Shown here: positions 937-10,152 of the stretch, one piece after another
How the letters are laid out: each line of letters starts with the position of its first letter
Position numbering within the stretch: position 1 is the stretch's first letter
Source of the DNA: a bacterium
GTDB lineage: Bacteria > UBA8248
Direction of reading: 5' to 3'
DNA: 10,152 bases
Assembly: GCA_965200245.1 (NCBI GenBank)
Contig: CBDATS010000014.1
Location: 1-10,152, forward strand
The notes under the pieces: generated by a model
What the model saw: the letters and a program-made list of their open reading frames with translations, nothing else
The model's database searches: none
What the model was told of the DNA's origin: nothing
Translations under genes and position numbers: made by a program

Positions 937-1615
937 GGTCAGCGACCCATGCCAGTCGAAGGGCCACGCCTTCGAGGGTGACTTCCTCCGAAAGCTTATT
1001 CCGGCAAGAAACCGGTGCCTTGATGGCTTCGGCAAATTTTCGGAAGTCGTCGAACCCTTTATGCTTCTCCGAGAACGAGTGCACCAGCATGACCGCCTTG
1101 CAGACTTTGTAGCTCTGTGCTTCATATATCGTGGCTGCCGTGCGGTGCAGAAGCTGATAGCGCAGGTTCTGGGCGTCGCTATCCTCGAGCTGCAAGGTCT
1201 CAAGGAGACCCGATAGCCGATGCTTGCCCTCCGAGGCACCATTCAGCCATTTCGAGACAACTTTATCGAAACCCTCGTTCACCTTGCCCTCAACCCCAAG
1301 TACGACGCACCCGTTCCTGTCGCCAATCAACGCCAATAAATCTGTGTGGCTGGATCCTCCAGGAACGGGGGGGCGAAGATCGGTCTTCTTTTCGAAAATG
1401 CCCTCGATCAGCTCCATGCCTCGGAATTCTTCAGCCTGACGCAGGACCTTCGCTACCGGCTCAGGGATGCCGTTTGCCCGTACCCAGGAATGGGCCAGCT
1501 CATAGGCCGAATGCCCCTTCTTCCAGTGCCCCTTCGGGAGATGCTGCATTACGTCTTCTGGATTCTCGACTGGATTCTCGACCTGCCCGAAGAAGAATTT
1601 GAATCTGTCGGTCAT
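908..1615 (-). CDS. DUF6946-like protein (putative PD-(D/E)XK nuclease fold), 235 aa
   Basis: Motifs HWKKGHSAYELAHSW, E...L...S.TDLL, VEGKVNEGF, LRYQLLHRTAA and VMLVHSFS; RBS-like GAGG upstream. The last ~9 codons are read from the ISKra4 end. Confidence 0.8.
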   Translation of the reverse strand: MTDRFKFFFGQVENPVENPEDVMQHLPKGHWKKGHSAYELAHSWVRANGIPEPVAKVLRQAEEFRGMELIEGIFEKKTDLRPPVPGGSSHTDLLALIGDRNGCVVLGVEGKVNEGFDKVVSKWLNGASEGKHRLSGLLETLQLEDSDAQNLRYQLLHRTAATIYEAQSYKVCKAVMLVHSFSEKHKGFDDFRKFAEAIKAPVSCRNKLSEEVTLEGVALRLAWVADRVCPETAHR

Positions 1616-1694
1616 TTGAACCTCGCCTTGTCGTTGAACTGAAGCATGTCGGATTGCACGAGATCGGATCTTCCTGGGCCGCGACGCCCGCGCG

Positions 1695-1702
1695 AAACCG
1701 AA
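1695..1702 (+). repeat. Left copy of 8-bp target-site duplication AAACCGAA
   Basis: Identical copy at 7628-7635, directly outside the right IR. Confidence 0.9.
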
Positions 1703-1720
1703 GGGAATTATACGGATAAC

Positions 1721-1749
1721 TTGATTTTCTAGCCGAGATCTCGTAAAAT
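1721..1749 (+). promoter_or_regulatory. Putative sigma70 promoter of the IS1595 transposase
   Basis: TTGATT (1721-1726, overlapping the inner end of IRL), 17 bp spacer, TAAAAT (1744-1749), about 30 bp upstream of the ATG at 1779. Confidence 0.55.
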
Positions 1750-1778
1750 GATGACATCGTAATCAACCGGATACCACG

Positions 1779-2777
1779 ATGTCGAAGAAAGGCCCCGGAC
1801 GAGCCCACCGAGAAGGGCTCACGGTAGTCGAACTACTCCAGATGTTCCCCGACGATGCCGCCGCCGAGAAGTGGTTCGAGGACCAGCGGTGGTCGGCGAC
1901 TGGTCGTTTCTGCCCCGCTTGTGGCTCCCTCGACACCTATGAGGTGAAGGGCCGCAAGCCCATGCCCTACGCGTGCCGCGACTGCGACGAATACTTCTCC
2001 GTCAAGAAAGGCACCGTGATGCAGTCAAGCAAGCTCGGGCTCCAGAAATGGGCGATCGCCATCTACATGATGGTGACGGGCATCAAGGGAACCTCCAGCA
2101 TGAAAATCCATCGTGACCTCGGAATTCGCCAGGCCACGGCGTGGCACCTGATGCAGAGGATACGGGAGGGTTTTCTCGAGGGGACCGCAGGGAAGATGAC
2201 CGGTCCCGTTGAGGTGGACGAGGCTTACATCGGAGGTAAGCGCTCGAACATGCGCCCGGAACGGGCAAAGCGGTTCAGCGGTCGAGGGGTTCAGGGAAAG
2301 GCCATCATTGCCGGAGCCAAGGACCGCAAGACGAAGCGCGTCAGCGCGGAGGTTGTCCCGAACACCACGAAGCCGGTCCTGCATGACTTCATCGAGAAGC
2401 GAGTCGATGAGTCGGCGCAGGTGTACACCGATGAGCATCAATCGTACGAGGGGATCCCCTTCGAGCACGATTCAGTGAAACATTCAGTCGGCGAGTACGT
2501 GCGTGGGCAGGCTCACACGAACGGCATGGAATCGTTCTGGGCGCTGATGAAGCGCGGCTACCACGGCACCTTCCACAAGATGAGCCACAAGCACCTTGAC
2601 CGGTATGTGAACGAGTTCGCTGGACGGAACAACATCCGGGACCTCGATACGATGAAGCAGATGGAGGTGCTATCTCAGGGGATGGTGGGCAAACGATTGA
2701 CCTACGAGAAGCTCATTGCCCCGAACGGGCGAGAGTCAGGCGCACGGCCCCTCGGGCGAGGGAAGATGGCGGATTGA
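1779..2777 (+). CDS. IS1595-family transposase, 332 aa, apparently intact
   Basis: Zn ribbon (CPACGS...YACRDC), HTH-like region, VEVDEAYIGG, VYTDEHQSY, HTNGMESFWALMKRGYHG and HLDRYVNEF..R.N. Confidence 0.95.
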   Translation: MSKKGPGRAHREGLTVVELLQMFPDDAAAEKWFEDQRWSATGRFCPACGSLDTYEVKGRKPMPYACRDCDEYFSVKKGTVMQSSKLGLQKWAIAIYMMVTGIKGTSSMKIHRDLGIRQATAWHLMQRIREGFLEGTAGKMTGPVEVDEAYIGGKRSNMRPERAKRFSGRGVQGKAIIAGAKDRKTKRVSAEVVPNTTKPVLHDFIEKRVDESAQVYTDEHQSYEGIPFEHDSVKHSVGEYVRGQAHTNGMESFWALMKRGYHGTFHKMSHKHLDRYVNEFAGRNNIRDLDTMKQMEVLSQGMVGKRLTYEKLIAPNGRESGARPLGRGKMAD

Positions 2778-2836
2778 CTATGCTGAGGCAGGAGAAGAAA
2801 ATTCCCTCCACTGCGAAATTGGCGTAGGAGACGAAC

Positions 2837-3106
2837 GTGCGTTACATCATCAGCTACGATTTACTCGATGAAGATCGAAGAGCCGATTACAGACGGGTGG
2901 AAAGGTATCTAGAAGATAGGGGCGCTCAAAAGATACTGAACACCGTATGGGTCATCAAAAGCACAGAAAGCGCCACTTCAATCCTTGACGAGTTGAAACT
3001 TGCTACCACCGGCAAAAAGGATAGGATCGCTGTCATCCCCAGTAGAATCAAGATCGAACTCTGGGCGGTGAGGCGACTCATAACTCCCAAAAAGAGACTC
3101 AAGTAA
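2837..3106 (+). CDS. Stand-alone Cas2/VapD-like small ferredoxin-fold protein, 89 aa
   Basis: GTG start after AGGAG. N-terminal YIISYDL strand carries the Cas2-type Asp, followed by Y..V...L...GA.KILNTVW and D.I.V near the C-terminus. AT-richer than the flanking DNA. Confidence 0.7.
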   Translation: MRYIISYDLLDEDRRADYRRVERYLEDRGAQKILNTVWVIKSTESATSILDELKLATTGKKDRIAVIPSRIKIELWAVRRLITPKKRLK

Positions 3107-3190
3107 ATCTCCTACTTGGTTGAGTATTTTTTCTTCTCGGCGATTTTCTGGACAGATACACAACTCAGCATTCAGCCAATGTATTTTCAT
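2978..3190 (-). CDS. Small hypothetical protein (70 aa), convergent with and overlapping the Cas2-like gene
   Basis: ATG at 3190 after a purine-rich tract; MKIHWLNAELCICPENRREEKIL...; 129-nt antisense overlap. No family recognised. Confidence 0.35.
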   Translation of the reverse strand: MKIHWLNAELCICPENRREEKILNQVGDLLESLFGSYESPHRPEFDLDSTGDDSDPILFAGGSKFQLVKD

Positions 3191-3230
3191 GATCTCTTTC
3201 TCTAACAACAGCCAGTAGATTGAATAATCC

Positions 3231-3248
3231 GGGAATTATACGAGGAAA
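3231..3248 (+). repeat. Internal copy of the IS1595 terminal IR (same orientation as IRL)
   Basis: GGGAATTATACGAGGAAA: the first 12 bp are identical to both termini, and it matches the IRR over 17 bp with a 1-bp insertion. Confidence 0.75.
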
Positions 3249-3260
3249 TAACTCTCTAAT

Positions 3261-4100
3261 CTAATCTCCTATCTTCAATTTTCCGGCTTGTTTCTTGAGG
3301 TTTCCTGATGCTCTGATTACCGAAGTGACTAGAGGCCGCCAATCAGACTCCATGTTATTGTCCCAGAATATTTGCATAGTTTCACAATGTGTTCCTGATA
3401 TCTTCTTCTGTCTGCATCGCTCAATGTAAGAGTCGTAGAAGGCTTGAACTGCTAGCGCAAATTCTGGCTCAATAGAAGAATCATGAGGCCCGTCATACTC
3501 TCCCAAAGAAGCAAGAATCTGTTTGTTGACTGAAATATTGCGTGGCCCCCATCTCTCTAAATCTAGAGCGATATCCAAACGCAGTCCTGGCACGTTATCG
3601 TGCAATCCAATCTCGGCTACCCCGCACTGTTTTAGTACGGGAGCAATGGCATCATACGACCCCGACAGGTCGAATGACGCGGTGTGCCCTACTCCGCGGA
3701 AATCAGTTACTTCGATGACAAACGAGTCCCCGGTCATGAGAAGTCTGGCTAGATGTGCGTCGTCTACTGCGAATATTGCTGTTCCCTTTGAAGATGGAAG
3801 CCATTTGTCTTCTACTACCTTCTCCTTGTTTACTCGGTACCTAACTTCCATCAAGTCATTACCCAAATATTCTCGAAAGTTGAAGTAGGTAGAGAATTCC
3901 GTACCTTTGCAACGAATAACCGCGCTGTTCTTGTTAGTTCCTGCACCAGAAGAACCGACGGCAATTGCCACTGTCTCGTCTGTGAACGGGTCTGTTTTTG
4001 TATCTAGAGTCCATTTGGAGTCAGAAGCATCAGCAAACAGGGGACTGATTGTCAGTATCGTCAAGAGAGAAATGACTAACGCCTGTCTTCTTTTCGTCAT
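3261..4100 (-). CDS. Exported protein, T6SS VasI/TagO-like domain plus possible peptidoglycan-binding-like C-terminal segment, 279 aa
   Basis: ATG 4100 with GAGGAG RBS; signal peptide MTKRRQALVISLLTILTISPLFA; W.....DPFTD...IRC...YLG....V.YR...W..S..G.A.F...F.L.G...AI.P....C pattern. Later segment KQILASLGEYDGPHD...ALAVQAF. The CDS is solid; the domain names are tentative. Confidence 0.7.
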   Translation of the reverse strand: MTKRRQALVISLLTILTISPLFADASDSKWTLDTKTDPFTDETVAIAVGSSGAGTNKNSAVIRCKGTEFSTYFNFREYLGNDLMEVRYRVNKEKVVEDKWLPSSKGTAIFAVDDAHLARLLMTGDSFVIEVTDFRGVGHTASFDLSGSYDAIAPVLKQCGVAEIGLHDNVPGLRLDIALDLERWGPRNISVNKQILASLGEYDGPHDSSIEPEFALAVQAFYDSYIERCRQKKISGTHCETMQIFWDNNMESDWRPLVTSVIRASGNLKKQAGKLKIGD

Positions 4101-4143
4101 GGCTCGATCTCCTCGCATCGCGCGCACGAATCCGAATCCCGAC

Positions 4144-4309
4144 GCAAAATGGCGCCGGGCCGTGCATACGTCTCTCGGAACGAGTGAAGTCCCGCCTATT
4201 CACCCAAGCTCGGGGAGCTACCCTTCGCCGGGAATGCAGGCTGTTGTATTCAGCGGGCAACCCGGCAGAGGGCCGGACGCCCGAGAGACGTATACGGGTG
4301 CCATCTTGC
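4144..4309. ncRNA. Putative structured RNA (long closing stem with three internal hairpins), family not recognised
   Basis: ATACGTCTCTCGG (4166-4178) pairs perfectly with CCGAGAGACGTAT (4281-4293), extendable with bulges to 4144/4309. Internal stems GTGAA/TTCAC, AGCTC/GAGCT and CCCT..GCCGGG...GCTG/CAGC...CCCGGC..AGGG. Confidence 0.45.
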
Positions 4310-4377
4310 TACAGGACGTGTCAGGGAGTCAATCAGAGGTGGCTCTGGTTGACCGTCGTACTGCGGAGTCGGACACT
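4303..4377. promoter_or_regulatory. Palindrome with back-to-back -35 boxes (possible divergent promoters/operator)
   Basis: GTCAATCAGAG-gtgg-CTCTGGTTGAC (4328-4353). Rightward TTGACC-17-GACACT; leftward TTGACT-18-CAAGAT. Both -10 boxes are imperfect. Confidence 0.35.
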
Positions 4378-4446
4378 ACCCGTTGACGTGAACGACCGCA
4401 GGAGCCGCAGCCATGCCGAAATCCGGTAGCCGAGGGGCGGCCGCAC

Positions 4447-5855
4447 CTTAGAGATCCCCTCATGTTTCTTGTCAAGTTTGTATTTTCATGAATTGATACT
4501 ATTGTGTTTCTATATTTCTCGGTCTGACGATTGCATACCCGAACACTCAAAAGTGGCTCATCAGGAGAAGGTCAACGTCATTTCGACTCGCCTGACCATT
4601 CATCCCATTTGCAAAGAGTTTCTTTTGAGATCATCATCCCAATCCGCACCCTCGTGAATGGAGATGGATGATGGCACCGAAGAACATCCTGCCAAGGAAG
4701 AAGATCGCCGACTTTATCGACCACTTGTACGACGGGGACCTGCACGCCAAACGCGTGTTGTCATTGGCCAACGCCACCTTGGGAGTGCTGGTCGGCGCCT
4801 CGTTGGCAGTGCATGCCATCGGCCAAGGACTGGCCCAGGCATTGGGCAAGCTGAGCAAGCATGGAGTGAAGCAGGTCGACCGGCTACTGAGCAATCAGGG
4901 AATCGATGTCTGGGAGTTTTTCGGCGACTGGATTCCGTATCTGGTCGGTGCACGCACCGAAGTGGTCGTGGCGATGGATTGGACGAGCTTCGCACGAGAC
5001 CAGCAAGACACGGTGGTGTTGTCGATGTTGACCAGTCATGGACGTGCGACGCCGCTGATATGGAGAACGGTGGAGTCGTCGTCGCTCAAAGGGCAGATGA
5101 AGCGCCATGAGAAGGAGCTACTGGAGAGGTTGCGCGAGGGGGTGCCGGCAGGGGTGAAGGTGACGGTAGTCGCGGACCGGGGATTCGGGGACTGCAAGCT
5201 GTTCAAGACGCTCACGCAGGAGTTGGGATTCGAGTACGTGAGACGTATTCGCGGTGACATCTACGTCACGAGTGCGAAGGGTGAGCGGCGCAAGGCGGCG
5301 CAGTGGGTGGGCAACGCAGGCCGGTCGCGCACGTTGCGCAACGCGCAGGTGAGCGGCGAGCACGCCCTGGAGGTGGGCACGGTGGTGTGCGTGCACGCGC
5401 GCGAGATGAAGGAGCCGTGGTGCCTGGTGGCGAGTGAATCGAAAGTGGGGACGCGTCCATTGATTCGCTACGATGCGAAGCGGTGGGGGATCGAGACGAG
5501 CTTTCGCGACATCAAGGACATGCGGTTCGGGATGGGGCTGTCGGCGATGCGGGTATCCAGCGCACAACGTCGGGACCGGATGTTGTTGCTCAGTGCGTTG
5601 GCGATTGCATTGCTGTCGTTGTTGGGAGCGGCGGGGGAGAGCTTGGGGTACGACCGGTGGTTGAAGGTGAACACGGTGAAGTATCGCACGCATTCGTTGT
5701 TTCGTCAGGGGTTGATGCGATATGACCATATACCCGACTGGCCGGATGAGCGTGTACGGCCATTGATGGAGAAGTTTTCGCAAATGCTTATGGAGCAACG
5801 GGTATTCAAGGAAATCTTTGGTGTCATTTGATAGTTAAATGAGGGGATGGATAAG
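4447..5855 (+). mobile_element. IS4-family IS10-group insertion sequence, 1,409 bp
   Basis: IRs CTTAGAGATCCCCTCAT (4447-4463) and reverse complement of 5839-5855 CTTATCCATCCCCTCAT (14/17), resembling IS10 ends as I recall them. 8-bp TSD GGCCGCAC at 4439-4446 and 5856-5863. Confidence 0.92.
4668..5831 (+). CDS. IS4-family transposase, 387 aa
   Basis: VAMDWT, VADRGFGD, EPWCL and KRWGIETSFRDIKD...G. The Tyr of the Y-2-R-3-E-6-K motif is Asp here. Confidence 0.93.
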   Translation: MMAPKNILPRKKIADFIDHLYDGDLHAKRVLSLANATLGVLVGASLAVHAIGQGLAQALGKLSKHGVKQVDRLLSNQGIDVWEFFGDWIPYLVGARTEVVVAMDWTSFARDQQDTVVLSMLTSHGRATPLIWRTVESSSLKGQMKRHEKELLERLREGVPAGVKVTVVADRGFGDCKLFKTLTQELGFEYVRRIRGDIYVTSAKGERRKAAQWVGNAGRSRTLRNAQVSGEHALEVGTVVCVHAREMKEPWCLVASESKVGTRPLIRYDAKRWGIETSFRDIKDMRFGMGLSAMRVSSAQRRDRMLLLSALAIALLSLLGAAGESLGYDRWLKVNTVKYRTHSLFRQGLMRYDHIPDWPDERVRPLMEKFSQMLMEQRVFKEIFGVI

Positions 5856-5871
5856 GGCCGCACCCGGTCAG

Positions 5872-6021: not shown

Positions 6022-6204
6022 ATGAGCAGAAAGCCGATAGGAAGAATCGAAGGCGCGACGCCGGAGCAGGTTGCTCAGGCGATATTCGCCGCCGCAACCC
6101 CGCCGGACCCGACGAAGCGGAAGCCGAGGAACAAGCGCAAGCGTCGGGTGACCGATGAAATCTCCTACATGCGGAAGCCGAAGGAGCGAGGGTCGAGCGC
6201 GTGA
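6022..6204 (+). CDS. Small basic hypothetical protein, 60 aa
   Basis: MSRKPIGRIEGATPEQVAQAIFAA...; starts 8 bp inside the IR; its stop overlaps the next start (GTGA). Resembles short ATPE.VA.A peptides I recall near IS1595 ends. Confidence 0.55.
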   Translation: MSRKPIGRIEGATPEQVAQAIFAAATPPDPTKRKPRNKRKRRVTDEISYMRKPKERGSSA

Positions 6205-6452
6205 GTTTCCCTCAACGCTGCAAGGTTTGTGGAAAACGAGACAAGTTCAACTTCTCTGTGCCGGACGATATCTGGGCTGAAGTCGTGCCAGAACCCTTTC
6301 GGCAACGTGTGGTCTGTCTTGGCTGCTTTGACGCCTTCGCTAGTCAGAAGGGCGTGCAATACGTGCATACCCTTTCTCGTAACCTTCACTTCGCCGGAGA
6401 TGCTGCGAATCTCACCCTGGAGATTCGCGGCTGCTTAGGTAGACCGGAATGA
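6201..6452 (+). CDS. Small putative zinc-finger protein, 83 aa
   Basis: CKVC...F.VPDDIW..V...VCLGCF (two CxxC pairs); translationally coupled to the upstream ORF. Confidence 0.65.
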   Translation: MSFPQRCKVCGKRDKFNFSVPDDIWAEVVPEPFRQRVVCLGCFDAFASQKGVQYVHTLSRNLHFAGDAANLTLEIRGCLGRPE

Positions 6453-6454
6453 CG

Positions 6455-6622
6455 CTATGACGACTTCTTGCAAGTGCCGTCGTGGTCTTTGCTCTGGCAC
6501 TGATTGCATAGCTCGCCGCTTGTCGGTTTCGAGTACCGGGTTTTATACCCGGACGTCGGTCAGTTGCTGCAATTCGTGCACCAGTGCCATGTATCGGAAT
6601 AGGTTCTCCTTCGGTATTGCAT
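6455..6622 (-). pseudogene. Small Cys-rich protein (55 codons) with in-frame TGA, absent from the ORF track
   Basis: AAGGAG RBS, then MQYRRRTYSDTWHWCTNCSN*PTSGYKTRYSKPTSGELCNQCQSKDHDGTCKKSS; TGA at 6562-6560. Confidence 0.75.
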
Positions 6623-6670
6623 CAGAAACTTCTCCTTCAAGGCGCGATTGATGAGTGGCGTATCCAGCTA

Positions 6671-7511
6671 GGGCCTGTTAACGCTATATGGATTTGATTG
6701 CGTCGACGATCAGTGCAAAGTAGATGAAGAAGGTGAAGACCACATCAAGCTTGTCGAACCGGGTGAATACGCGCCTGAACCGCTTCAGCCGCCGGAACAG
6801 ACGCTCGACCTCGTTGCGCCTCTTGTACAACTCCCGATCATAGTCCCATGGACAGACGCGATTGGCCTTGGGCGGCACGACCGGCTTCAGCCCCAAGTCC
6901 ACCACGAGCTGACGGGTCTCATCGCCTTCGTAGGCTTTATCCATCACCAGGCAACGCGCCTCATCGGGCAACGCCGTACGGGCCAGCAGGGCACGTCCTT
7001 GTGGCCCGTCACCCGCTTCTCCCCCGGAGAGTGAGAATCCGATGGCGCTTCGATCATCCGAGGCAATCAGATGAACCTTGGTGCTCCAGCCCCCGCGTGA
7101 CTTCCCGATGGCTTGGGGACCGTTTTTTTGAGCGCTCCCGTCCCATCCGGGTGCACTTTCACTCTCGTGCTGTCGAGCGACATCACCTCCACTCGCACCC
7201 GAATGAGGTCCAGACGTTGCAACTCTGCAAACACTCGGTCCAGCACTCCGGCCTTCGCCCAGCGATTCATCCGTGTGTAGATGGTGTGCCAATTCCCGAA
7301 GGACGCCGGCAATCCACGCCACTTGCATCCTTGCTCGGCCACGTACAGGATGGCATCGAGCACCGCGAGATGACTGAGCGAGACATTGCCGCGTTGCTTG
7401 GGGAACAGGTGCGCGATGCGTTCGAAGTGTGTTTGCGTGAGTTCCATCGCCTGGAATCCTCTTCATCGACTGTGGTTCCAGCAGTCTATCAGAAATTGCG
7501 TTAACACGTCC
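6671..7511 (-). mobile_element. IS5-family IS427-group insertion sequence, 841 bp
   Basis: IRs GGGCCTGTTAACGC (6671-6684) and reverse complement of 7498-7511 GGACGTGTTAACGC (12/14). TA duplication (6669-6670, 7512-7513) in a CTAG site. Confidence 0.92.
6684..7447 (-). CDS. IS5-family transposase with -1 programmed frameshift
   Basis: OrfA (GCKWRGLP..FGNWHTIYTR..RW, LDSTRVKVH) joins OrfB (IGKSRGGWSTKVH, MDKAYE, YKRRNEVERLFRRLKRFRR) at an A7 run (7123-7129). Confidence 0.92.
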
Positions 7512-7627
7512 TAGCTAGGATACCTCATCCCGATGCCAACGGCTACTCGTGAAGATACGCCGTCGCAGCCCGCCACACGCCGAATCTGGCGATGGATAGG
7601 GATTTTCAAGTTTCCCGTATAATTCCC

Positions 7628-7635
7628 AAACCGAA
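7628..7635 (+). repeat. Right copy of 8-bp target-site duplication AAACCGAA
   Basis: Identical to 1695-1702. Confidence 0.9.
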
Positions 7636-7964
7636 ACCGTCTTGCGCACGACGGACCGATTCCCGTGCCGATCCTCGATCACCGCAAACAACCGAGGTGG
7701 TTCTGGTTCGTTGGACAATCTGATGGTGTAATGAAGGTGTACTGCGATTGATTGGGCGCCCTCGATAAACGGCTCCTGCCGACGGCAACTGGCGATGTCA
7801 ACAGCATCGTCGCGGCGCTCATGGTCCCTGGTAAAGTGGGACCACCTCAATTCGCCGCGGACCGACCTGGATCGTGACTTGCTCGACACCCGAACGAAGT
7901 GCAGGCGGGTTGCCGTAGCGGTCGCGAATCCCGCAACGCTTGGCTTCGGAATGACTGGGCAGGC

Positions 7965-8759
7965 ATGACTGCCGCGGTCCACTATCATGCGGGCCGATTC
8001 CCACTCGACGATCACCTCGACTGGAGCCGACTGATCCCGCTGCTCGGCCCAGCGGCCGGGGAGGTGGCGCGGTACGACGGAATGCTCGCCGCCCTGCCCA
8101 ACGCCAACCTCCTGCTCGCACCCCTGACTACCCGGGAAGCAGTCCTTTCCTCGCGCATCGAAGGAACCCGGGCCACCATGGGCGAAGTGATGGAGTTCGA
8201 GGCCGGACGCCGCGATGTCCCCCGAATCGCCAGGACGACATACTCGAAGGGCTCGACTACCCCGCGGCCATCCGCCGAGCAGAGGAACTGATCGAGCGGC
8301 TGCCGCTCTCCGGGTCGGTTGGTGCCTGTTCTTCCTGAACGCGGTGCGGTCAGGCCGAGGACGATCTGGCCCGGACCAAGGGCATCCTCGACCTCTACGA
8401 CGACATGAAGGTCCAGGTTGCGGAGACCACCCGCTCGTATGGAAAAACCGGCCACTCGTCGAATCCGGTCGAGACCTGCCGGTTGCTCCCTGCGTGACAA
8501 CGGGGGTCGGGATCTCCGACCATGACCGGCTCACAGTACGCCATGCAGGCTCTGGAGGGGATTTTTCGACATCCGATCTTCCGCGCCACCGATTTCGGAG
8601 CGATGGCGGGTATCCCGGCGCCCACAGCGCGGCGGATTCTGATGGTGCTGCGGGAGAACGGCATTCTGCGCGAGCTTCGGGCCGACAAGGGGCGTCGGGT
8701 GGCAATCCTCGCGTTTCCGGCCCTTCTGGACGTCTGTGGAGGGGAACGACGCCCGTTGA
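7965..8759 (+). pseudogene. Fic-family protein pseudogene lacking the catalytic core
   Basis: Fic N-terminal region (LLLAPLTTREAVLSSRIEGTRATMGEV), then LPLS joined directly to GWCLFFLNAV with no HPFxDGNGR. C-terminal HTH (SQYAMQAL..IF.HPIF...TARRIL). Several frameshifts. Confidence 0.85.
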
Positions 8760-8793
8760 CGCTCGCCCGTGATCACCAACACCGTTTGTCGCT

Positions 8794-8880
8794 TACAGTC
8801 CGCACCCCGGACCCGATACGGACAAGGGCGCGGTGGCCAGTATACGGAGTTGGCTGAAGCGAAACGGGGTGGAGCCATGA
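8794..8880 (+). pseudogene. hicA: HicA toxin 3' remnant
   Basis: Frame not in the ORF track: YSPHPGPDTDKGAVASIRSWLKRNGVEP*, matching the HicA C-terminus (HRPHP..DTDKGAV..IR.WL..NGV.P). Its stop overlaps the hicB start (ATGA). Confidence 0.8.
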
Positions 8881-9218
8881 GAAACACGATGGAGATCGAA
8901 GGGTACCGTGCCGTCATCCAGTTCGATCCCGACATCGAAATGTTCCGAGGCGAGTTCGTCGGTCTGAACGGAGGCGCGGATTTCTACGCCCGGGATATCG
9001 CGGGCCTCAGACGCGAGGGCGCCGCGTCCCTCGAGATGTTTCTGGATATGTGCAGGGAGGACGGGGTCGAGCCGCGAAAGCAGTTCTCCGGGAAGTTCAG
9101 CATGCGCATCCCGGTGGACCTGCACGCCGCCATTGCCGCGGCCGCCGCCGCCGATGGCAAGAGCCTCAATCAGTGGGTCACGGACGAGCTTCGTGCCTGC
9201 ATCGGCGGCTCGGGGTAA
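8877..9218 (+). CDS. hicB: HicB-family antitoxin, 113 aa
   Basis: GYRAVIQFDPDIEMFRGEFVGLNGGADFYA...FSGKFSMRIPVDLH...GKSLNQWV; ATG at 8877. Confidence 0.92.
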   Translation: MRNTMEIEGYRAVIQFDPDIEMFRGEFVGLNGGADFYARDIAGLRREGAASLEMFLDMCREDGVEPRKQFSGKFSMRIPVDLHAAIAAAAAADGKSLNQWVTDELRACIGGSG

Positions 9219-9228
9219 GGATCACGCC

Positions 9229-9770
9229 ATGGCCCTGAACCCCGTCGCCTACACCAAGAACGTCGTCCGGAGCTTCCTGCGCTACCAGCTCACCGCGTAT
9301 CCCTTCGCCGACCCACGCCTGCACGCGCAGATGCGAGGGCTCCTTTCGCTCGACGAGACCCGCCGCTCGCCGCTGCTCGAGGGGCCGTACATCAGCCTTT
9401 CGTGACCATTCCGGCCGGGCGCTTCGGTGGCCTCGCTGGTCGCCGAAGGCCTGCTCCACCCGCATCCGGGCGAGCGGATCCCGCCGGAGATTACCCACCT
9501 CTACAGCCACCAGGAACGCGCCATCCGCGCGATTGCCGAGGGCCGGACGACCCTCGGCTCCACCGGCACCGGGTCGGGCAAGACCGAGTGCTTCCTCTAC
9601 CCCATCGTCAGCCGGTGCCTCGCGCTGCGGGACGAGGGGGTGTCGCCCGGTATCAGTGCCATCATCGTCTTGTCCGATGAATGCGCTCGCCGAGGATCAG
9701 CTCATGCGGCTACGCGGGGTGCTGGCGGGCACGGGGATCCCATTCGGGATCTACGTCGGCAAGACCCCAG
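9229..9770 (+). pseudogene. N-terminal remnant of a large DEAD/DEAH-box helicase (DUF1998-associated type)
   Basis: GPYISLS*PF (stop 9403-9405), LYSHQERAI, TGTGSGKTECFLYPI, frameshift near 9670, then PMNALAEDQL.RL...YVGKTP. Cut off by IS3 sequence. Confidence 0.88.
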
Positions 9771-9777
9771 CCCTCTC

Positions 9778-10059
9778 TGCCGACATGACCGAGACATCGG
9801 TTCCCCGTGGAATGACTGTAGGGCGTGGAGGTGAACACCGATGAGAGCACAGAGCGATTCGATGACGTGGACCGATGCGGACGCCCCGGCCCTGGGGACC
9901 GAGGAGCGTAGCGACGAGGCCCCCAGGGCCGCAACCGCACAGGCGAACTGTCCACCCGATCCCGAGGTCGTGGCCAAGCCCACCCGGCGCCAGCTCATCG
10001 CCGAGTACCGGCTGCGGCTCCTCGAACAAGCCGACCGCTGCACACACCCCGGCGAGGGG
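9778..10059 (+). mobile_element. IS3-family 5' fragment (OrfA N-terminus)
   Basis: PDPEVVAKPTRRQLIAEYRLRLLEQADRCTHPGE matches IS3 OrfA starts. A TG-initiated candidate end lies at 9778. Similarity stops near 10059. Confidence 0.7.
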
Positions 10060-10152
10060 CAATGGCGTTCGGTTAGCGGCTCAAACGCCTCGATCCGGCT
10101 CTGTGGGGCAGTCCGTATTCATAAAAAACAATAGGTTATGATGAATTCTACC
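10060..10152. mobile_element. Probable IS4-family terminus running off the window
   Basis: CAATGGCGTTCGGTTAG resembles IS4-family IRs and coincides with the point where IS3 OrfA similarity breaks. The other end is not visible. Confidence 0.45.

Follow-up and report, generated by a model that had tools for sequence, protein, structure and literature searches.

Cas2 proteins (PF09827/TIGR01573), including SSO1404 (2ivy) and those of B. halodurans (4es1) and S. pyogenes (4qr0), are small proteins of ~90 amino acids (aa) with a beta-alpha-beta-beta-alpha-beta ferredoxin-like fold, a Tyr-Asp pair ending strand 1, an S-V-aromatic motif and a homodimer in which the C-terminal segment packs on strand 4 of the partner. 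Here we describe a gene whose product shares these traits, the dimer by prediction, and which lies inside a transposon of the IS1595 family in a bacterium of the UBA8248 lineage (assembly GCA_965200245.1; 3.68 Mb in 15 contigs). The stretch analysed, hereafter the window, is the entire 10,152-bp contig CBDATS010000014.1 (C14). In contrast to Cas2, the gene has no cas1 or CRISPR array nearby, and its product scores below the Pfam cut-off and has no BLASTP similarity to the host's own Cas2. The family to which it belongs carries the motif SVW...KS instead of SVF/SLFE and, in most members, a C-terminal A-W-x-N...W-L motif.

VapD, the toxin of VapD/VapX, is a further small Cas2-fold protein of plasmids and mobile DNA, and its N terminus starts with the motif x-Y-x-x-x-F/Y-D-L. 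According to literature cited in passages of Makarova et al. 2012 (PMC3506569), VapD is an endoribonuclease. The window gene differs in having no VapX-like antitoxin gene beside it. The same passages describe antitoxin-less Cas2 homologues as solo genes on mobile elements, often beside recombinase, resolvase or relaxase genes, and propose an addiction role, while parts of a 2013 paper report Cas2-like proteins in integron cassettes (PMC3710099). The examples named in these portions of the two papers are from Campylobacter and Helicobacter, and IS1595 elements of the 'tIS' (transporter IS) type are unmentioned there; we set the present family beside them by description, its contexts likewise including resolvase or relaxase neighbours.

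Of the same family by profile are the phrog_1090 proteins of temperate phages and plasmids (among them gp11 of Staphylococcus phage phiSP44-1, gp05 of Enterococcus phage phiFL1A, gp22 of the P2-like phage R18C and the protein of Klebsiella plasmid pHNLW22-3), which are also solo small genes on mobile elements. They are 20–43% identical to the window protein (alignment A3, below) and differ from it in that its carrier is a transposon in a sponge-metagenome bacterium and its C terminus is divergent. That carrier resembles the tIS of the IS1595 family in its single zinc-ribbon DDE transposase, short inverted repeats, 8-bp duplication and passengers between the transposase and the right inverted repeat (IRR), and is distinguished by two nested insertion sequences (ISs), an extra internal copy of the terminal repeat and a Cas2-like cargo absent from 20 relatives. 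Overall, we judge it probable that the gene encodes a stand-alone phrog_1090 protein of the Cas2 superfamily that is cargo of a 5.9-kb IS1595 tIS and takes no part in transposition. What is new is the IS1595 tIS as carrier; the kind of gene, an uncharacterised solo Cas2 homologue on a mobile element, is already known.

A Cas2-like gene within the borders of an IS1595-family element

The gene and the borders of its carrier comprise the following features:

2826-2830, + strand: Shine-Dalgarno-like AGGAG, 6 nt upstream of the GTG start, a sequence match only
2837..3106, + strand: solo Cas2-fold protein of family phrog_1090, 89 aa, identified by open reading frame (ORF), profile, alignment and structure evidence
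1695..1702, no strand: left copy of the 8-bp target-site duplication AAACCGAA, identical to 7628-7635 and abutting the left inverted repeat (IRL)
1703..1724, + strand: left terminal inverted repeat IRL, GGGAATTATACGGATAACTTGA, which pairs with 7606-7627 (91% complementary)
1779..2777, + strand: IS1595-family transposase, 332 aa, with zinc ribbon and DDE domains (PF12762, E=3.1e-39; PF12760, E=6.4e-07)
7606..7627, - strand: right terminal inverted repeat IRR, which pairs with IRL
7628..7635, no strand: right copy of the 8-bp target-site duplication AAACCGAA, abutting IRR

The 22-nt inverted repeat begins GGGAATTATACGG, IRL and IRR match at 20 of 22 positions, and the IRL tip GGGAATTAT is common to related elements. 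Assignment of the transposase is further supported by NF033547 (186.5 bits against a cut-off of 75). Together the repeats enclose a 5.9-kb, cargo-carrying element whose cargo consists of the Cas2-like gene, a 288-aa gene and two small ORFs. The GTG is the first start codon within a 92-codon open frame and follows the transposase TGA (2775-2777) after a spacer of 59 nt (2778-2836), and residues 3-9 of the product read YIISYDL. An earlier note on this DNA, made from its letters alone, had described an 89-aa ORF with its own ribosome-binding site, a start 59 bp after the transposase, the YIISYDL motif and a place as first passenger of a transposon. All of this agrees with our coordinates; the gene lies inside the 22-nt repeats with the 8-bp duplication abutting both ends.

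The same note had seen neither cas1 nor a repeat-spacer array in the window, and our scans returned the same picture. No Cas1 domain was found among the window ORFs scanned against Pfam, and the window contains no repeat-spacer array: none of its seven tandem-repeat rows exceeds 26 nt, a search for direct repeats at regular spacing found no such family, and Rfam gave no match at gathering score. The window likewise shows no classical toxin-antitoxin partner; apart from the transposase upstream, the only flanking + strand ORFs of ≥25 aa are two downstream, of 29 aa and 32 aa. Elsewhere in the genome, contig C4 carries a canonical cas1-cas2 pair, and C9 and C13 have additional cas1-like matches. 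The window gene is present in a single copy, and its product has no BLASTP similarity to the canonical Cas2 (P0026). Based on 22 phmmer matches, invariant residues and a confident fold, the Cas2-like ORF is a real gene, beyond what chance would produce.

Family membership and conserved residues

Models of Cas2 recognize the window protein at the edge of their thresholds. Pfam PF09827 (CRISPR_Cas2) gives 21.3 bits (E 3.2e-4), below its gathering score of 23.8, NCBIfam TIGR01573 gives 24.8 bits, barely above its cut-off of 24.5, and in PADLOC the Cas2 models alone match, weakly. The profile of phrog_1090, annotated as 'unknown function' in PHROGs (which sets no curated cut-off), matches at E=4e-8 and 34.4 bits, aligning residues 2-67 with positions 3-66 of 90.

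The closest relative, P0002, is a full-length protein of 93 aa on another contig that is 86% identical, and was the sole close match in a word-indexed search of 5.8 billion proteins. An exhaustive phmmer search of 1.84 billion representatives retrieved 22 proteins at E≤1e-3, including the window's own and a few long or multi-stretch matches. From these we built alignment A2 (20 sequences), consisting of 18 short phmmer matches (64-142 aa), the window protein and P0002. All 20 proteins match phrog_1090 (best E 8.5e-26), and despite a mean column identity of 23%, residues Y7, D8, W38 and D62 are invariant, within a common motif of Y-x-I-S-Y-D-L ... S-V-W-x-x-K-S ... D-R. In a second alignment (A3, 16 sequences), Y7 and D62 are invariant and D8 nearly so, the exception, read from the alignment, being an Asn in the homologue of the related genome G016. 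Matches in the ESM Atlas (scores ≤0.88) are leads only, and a single-protein search for related loci found none in the genome, metagenome or viral contig sets; A2 and a further alignment, A4, contained no stretch conserved enough for such a search.

Compared with solved Cas2 chains (2i8e, 2ivy, 4es1, 8d3l and 3exc), the A2 profile yielded E values of 0.0017-0.026. HMMER aligns Y7-D8 of the window protein with Y9-D10 of SSO1404, and W38 with F37. These SSO1404 residues are said, after work by Beloglazova in 2008, to matter for RNase activity.

Could the gene then be a true CRISPR cas2, left over from a CRISPR-cas locus that the transposon picked up? The equivalog model TIGR01573 is just passed, and RefSeq calls the phage members 'CRISPR-associated endonuclease Cas2'. 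Against this stand the absence of cas1 and an array from the window, the lack of similarity to the genome's canonical Cas2, the sub-threshold Pfam score and the grouping with a separate family that is solo in 22 of 22 contexts, and we regard such an origin as highly improbable.

The G016 homologue itself (L023:3364-3648, on contig C20 of G016) carries Asn at the Asp8 position, lacks the Trp of SVW and lies on a contig with relaxase and AbiE genes. It may represent an inactivated or diverged branch.

Predicted structure and dimer

AlphaFold2, run with the 20-row alignment, produced a model with a predicted local distance difference test (pLDDT) score of 86 and a predicted template modelling (pTM) score of 0.72. 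Its elements (strand 2-8, helix 14-27, strand 31-34, strand 37-41, helix 46-56 and strand 63-69) follow the order b1-a1-b2-b3-a2-b4, which is that of Cas2. In a Foldseek search of the PDB, the best-ranked rows were nearly all Cas2, with query TM-scores (TMq) of 0.55-0.67, and no VapD chain was among the rows listed. GhoS, a type V antitoxin with a Cas2-like fold, appeared at rank 18 (TMq 0.56); it shares the fold but is only 12% identical, and the window gene has no gene for a small membrane toxin next to it. A search of BFVD gave one unnamed match (E 3.6e-4) and nothing informative. The model thus places the window protein in the Cas2/VapD-type ferredoxin-like fold. The earlier note had expected this fold with an N-terminal Asp and had pointed to Foldseek as the check; Cas2 chains indeed top the PDB list, and the residue in question, D8, is the one that aligns with D10 of SSO1404.

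A two-copy complex was predicted with a score of 0.80, compared with 0.18 for the best control. Among proteins whose solved structure is a pair of one chain, 20 of 30 attained the mark used for this score, against 1 of 23 among those with a single-chain structure. Across runs, contact agreement was at least 48% and the pLDDT of the partner at least 67. The predicted interface comprises residues 4, 6-8, 33-37, 45-47, 49-50, 54, 61-71 and 75-82, the last belonging to the C-terminal segment.

No linkage to IS1595 transposases

The gene follows the transposase in the same direction after 59 nt and lies inside the element, which could suggest that its product assists the IS1595 transposase as Cas2, which bridges two Cas1 dimers in the integrase complex, assists Cas1, and a parallel between recombinase-adjacent Cas2-like genes and the Cas1-Cas2 dyad is drawn in passages of Makarova et al. 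2012 (PMC3506569). A partner of this kind would be expected beside related transposases, and we surveyed 60 related genomes, the majority of which belong to the genus and family of the host. In 26 of them, matches to the transposase (E≤1e-20, ≤58% identity) occur at a total of 114 places; the family profile has five matches in the same 60, none of which lies at any of the 114 transposase places. We also retrieved 20 of the closest transposase loci (184,890 bases in total) and searched them in six frames with the hidden Markov model (HMM) of the family; there were zero matches at E≤10, while the window gene, as control, scored 9.2e-30. Conversely, neither an IS1595 transposase nor Cas1 occurs nearby in any of the 22 family contexts outside the window.

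Related elements carry other genes in the same place. Both ends could be located at 12 of the 20 loci, with a GGGAATTA-type tip and lengths of 1,644-5,094 bp, and four elements have clean 8-bp target duplications abutting their ends. All eight elements that were dissected bear cargo after the transposase, and this cargo differs between elements: N6/N4 methylase-HNH fusions (three elements), a DUF4875 protein, predicted secreted proteins and small ORFs. Since no related element holds a family member, this transposase clade works without a Cas2-like partner and routinely with variable cargo, a pattern that matches the tIS type of the IS1595 family as characterised in part of the TnCentral preprint.

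In related elements the first cargo slot is filled by unrelated genes, and the difference in GC content between gene (0.470) and transposase (0.603) suggests separate origins. An accessory subunit had been put forward in the earlier note, which itself tied the idea to enrichment of homologues beside IS1595 transposases; the survey found no such enrichment, and only a very remote chance is left to this reading. We conclude that the protein is very likely Cas2-superfamily cargo with no role in transposition.

Two further observations were made on the related elements. The methylase-HNH cargo is located at L055:1919-3352(+), L059:6687-8012(-) and L064:1991-3236(-), the L064 version being split into two ORFs. 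Just within their right ends, four elements have a small ORF in common (L052:6087-6242(-), L055:3337-3540(+), L057:3112-3261(+) and L060:6608-6856(-)), encoding 50-83 aa with the motif Y/HQPSKxELE (BLASTP E 2e-15 to 7e-6), which may be a conserved element-encoded factor.

A family of phages, plasmids and prophages

A tblastn search with the same-genus homologue P0025 (genome G008) matched 48 records among phages and 90 among plasmids. Staphylococcus, Enterococcus, Klebsiella and Mannheimia phages are represented, as well as P2-like types, and the plasmids range from 3-5-kb ColE1-type replicons to a Natronomonas plasmid. A motif scan of IMG/VR returned 56 loci, of which 21 encode a family member and fall into nine sequence groups. 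The 22 contexts evaluated here are thus 11 annotated ones, two related genomes and nine representative viral contigs (standing for the 21). The annotated and genomic contexts are:

phiSP44-1 and phiFL1A: adjoining lysogeny genes
Phage R18C: between tail-fibre-assembly and sheath genes
Klebsiella prophage: adjoining the portal gene
Mannheimia phage
Vibrio pVP17-2: near a Tn3 transposase, a recombinase and RelE/Phd
Two small plasmids, including Klebsiella plasmid pHNLW22-3
Acinetobacter plasmid: adjoining a type I restriction-modification system
B. cytotoxicus plasmid: adjoining a recombinase
Natronomonas plasmid (haloarchaeal)
Related genome G008: chromosomal, with an overlapping 136-aa ORF
Related genome G016: contig with TrwC relaxase and AbiE

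Among 90 neighbour ORFs of the nine viral representatives, Pfam identified repressors, Cro-like proteins, antirepressors, integrases and recombination genes, and no IS1595 transposase or Cas1; phmmer with the transposase likewise found none in the 21 viral loci. In six of nine viral representatives and two of five annotated phages, the family gene shares its orientation with repressor, integrase or ImmA genes and runs opposite to the early lytic ones. This is the layout of a prophage-expressed gene.

A Cas2-like protein made by a resident element might act as an anti-adaptation decoy, binding host Cas1 or pairing with host Cas2 and so blocking spacer acquisition. The Cas2 fold and the predicted Cas2-like dimer interface would suit such a role, the family is found on elements that CRISPR targets and in phages is often oriented with lysogeny genes, and this genome holds cas1-cas2 loci as possible targets. 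Cas-derived dominant-negative inhibitors are deemed plausible but rare in the relevant part of a 2024 review, which names viral Cas4, not Cas2. Against a decoy, the same motifs recur from Staphylococcus phages to a haloarchaeal plasmid, which better fits a host-independent activity, and the strictly conserved Tyr-Asp and Asp62 would be needless for mere binding. Because the protein is also unlike the host Cas2, showing no BLASTP similarity to it, and the family is conserved across unrelated hosts, we consider a decoy quite unlikely. If true, it would be an anti-CRISPR that derives from a Cas protein and is directed at the adaptation step. In a milder variant, the gene would be a one-gene, ~90-aa immunity or exclusion nuclease of prophages.

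Automated pipelines assign the label 'CRISPR-associated endonuclease Cas2' to the window gene and to its relatives on phages and plasmids. As none of the 22 contexts contains CRISPR parts, this label is misleading and will distort CRISPR censuses.

Some family genes have small neighbours without a Pfam match. In G008, a 136-aa ORF overlaps the stop of the family gene (L022:7734-8144(-)); in pHNLW22-3, two ORFs of 72 aa and 100 aa lie upstream (L069:13-537(+)), forming a three-gene operon; and in the Natronomonas plasmid, a 120-aa ORF lies 4 nt upstream (L073:3135-3497(+)). These linked neighbours may be variable partners of family members. A 13-mer resembling the terminal repeat, located after the G016 homologue, was dropped, as by our own estimate a two-mismatch search of ~200 kb would yield a few such matches by chance.

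Insertion polymorphism and an apparently chimeric element

Public sequencing runs contain the insertion site in both states. In run X4, a 275-nt contig joins position 1692 to position 7632, with 8 letters fitting both sides, and represents the empty site; the filled site is also present in this run, on other contigs. A 2,882-nt contig of run X2, which belongs to another study, spans 1593-4474 with zero differences. The element is therefore a real insertion polymorphism, with empty and filled sites in natural populations, and adds a documented case of this kind for an IS1595 tIS. The empty-site contig leaves out 5,939 nt, exceeding by 6 nt the distance between the outer ends of the inverted repeats plus 8. 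The excess equals one AAACCG unit, and the target holds a tandem AAACCG unit; the discrepancy could reflect slippage in this tandem unit or excision between the flanking CGAAACCG repeats.

In two metatranscriptome runs (X6 and X7, Logan contigs), contigs are listed over 1780-2089 and 2348-2564 (both within the transposase), 3212-3558 and 4030-4262. None is listed over the Cas2-like gene (2837-3106), which is uninformative either way, as assembled contigs of this kind omit rare sequence and DNA may be present in RNA libraries. Other contig joints (1619 to 9599, 5855 to 7083 and 8918 to 9256) have short sides or unknown letters between them and were left uninterpreted.

The interior of the element contains these further features:

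3231..3247, + strand: third, internal copy of the terminal repeat (GGGAATTATACG core), oriented as IRL
3261..4127, - strand: second cargo gene, 288 aa, with a hydrophobic N terminus (signal-peptide-like by eye), from ORF calling
4446..5856, + strand: nested IS with a 387-aa DDE_Tnp_1 transposase (ORF 4668-5831), based on an inverted-repeat pair and PF01609
6022..6452, + strand: two small overlapping cargo ORFs of 60 aa and 83 aa, from ORF calling, with no Pfam match
6666..7516, - strand: nested IS4/IS5-type IS with a two-frame transposase (DUF4096 and DDE_Tnp_1), based on an inverted-repeat pair and Pfam

The internal repeat copy sits between the Cas2-like gene and the 288-aa gene, both of low GC (0.470 and 0.468, with 0.379 in the spacer after the Cas2-like gene). 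We estimate that an exact 12-mer would occur by chance in about one per thousand windows of the same size. None of the 20 related loci has an internal third copy of its own termini, apart from a few weak 10-mer matches with one mismatch. Given the low GC of the cargo block relative to the transposase and the internal repeat copy, the element looks chimeric, and the copy may mark the junction of two merged elements.

Such a history would allow the Cas2-like gene to be an intact but functionless passenger, captured with neighbouring low-GC DNA when the two elements merged. The low-GC block (2837-4127) contrasts with the transposase, the third repeat copy at 3231 suggests a rearranged or chimeric element, the gene occurs once in the genome and the cargo region has since received two other ISs. 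A passenger under no constraint is harder to reconcile with an intact ORF that keeps the four family-invariant residues and a good ribosome-binding site, with a full-length homologue still 86% identical on another contig, and with an identical sequence in samples from two studies. We therefore consider neutral hitch-hiking unlikely.

A possible role in conflicts between mobile elements

With fold, family, element borders and the absence of linkage to an IS1595 transposase or cas1 as the observed frame, the stand-alone cargo gene may encode an active nuclease with a conflict or addiction role, a tentative proposal to which we give slightly less than an even chance. The protein would act as a Cas2/VapD-like homodimer in which the invariant Tyr7-Asp8 and Asp62, located at the predicted dimer interface, would form a metal-dependent nuclease site. 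Expressed by a resident mobile element, it would benefit its carrier in conflicts, either by excluding incoming phages or plasmids or through a toxin-like addiction effect. This is essentially the hypothesis advanced in the passages of Makarova et al. 2012 on mobile Cas2 homologues (PMC3506569). The earlier note had likewise suggested a mobile stand-alone nuclease: the mobile and stand-alone part stands, with no cas1 or array beside the gene and an IS1595-family element as carrier, and the nuclease part is what we favour by inference.

Several points weigh against this proposal. A lone toxic RNase would be difficult to maintain without an antitoxin, and the window shows no partner ORF, whereas some relatives (in G008, pHNLW22-3 and the Natronomonas plasmid) have tightly linked small neighbours. 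Conservation of acidic residues does not in itself demonstrate catalysis, and the G016 homologue has Asn for Asp8. The window protein has a C terminus that is modelled with low confidence and does not contain the A-W-x-N...W-L motif found in most members, the Pfam Cas2 score is under the gathering cut-off, and the dimer prediction may have passed owing to likeness to solved Cas2 dimers, which is not proof of dimerisation. Finally, a search of the literature, supplements aside, found no experimental study, activity, toxicity or phenotype for any family member.

Small and widespread, the family consistently occupies positions like those of an accessory gene expressed from a prophage. As no experimental work on it was found, it could be screened at low cost for defence, anti-defence and toxin activity. 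The family is also relevant to the older proposal, made in the same passages (PMC3506569), that Cas2 originated as a toxin-like nuclease of mobile elements.

Other features of the element and its flanks

The transposase matches plasmid sequences at ≤39% identity by tblastn, with no named IS subgroup among them. The subgroup may be ISNwi1, a name for which a paper search found nothing. The 288-aa cargo protein has no Pfam or NCBIfam match. Within the small cargo ORFs, the 60-aa ORF (6022-6204) is weakly similar to the right-end ORF at L057:3112-3261 (8 of 11 residues identical, BLASTP E=0.012).

Both nested ISs (4446-5856, flanked by the direct repeat GCCGCA(CC), and 6666-7516) are later insertions into the cargo region. 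In the sponge metagenome runs, the stretches containing them (4408-5763 and 6442-7797) reach summed contig depths of hundreds to ~15,000, compared with ~13-21 in the rest of the element; both IS types are very abundant in these communities, summed depth not being equivalent to copy number.

The right flank (7899-10152) begins with a Fic_N fragment (7899-8291) followed by out-of-frame ORFs, and includes a gene for a HicB antitoxin (8769-9218), for which no HicA is evident, and parts of a DEAD-box helicase split across frames (9427-9834). It is either a decayed island of defence or toxin-antitoxin type or the product of assembly frameshifts. Immediately to the left of the insertion site, the window encodes an intact DUF6946 protein (908-1615, - strand; E 2.5e-65).

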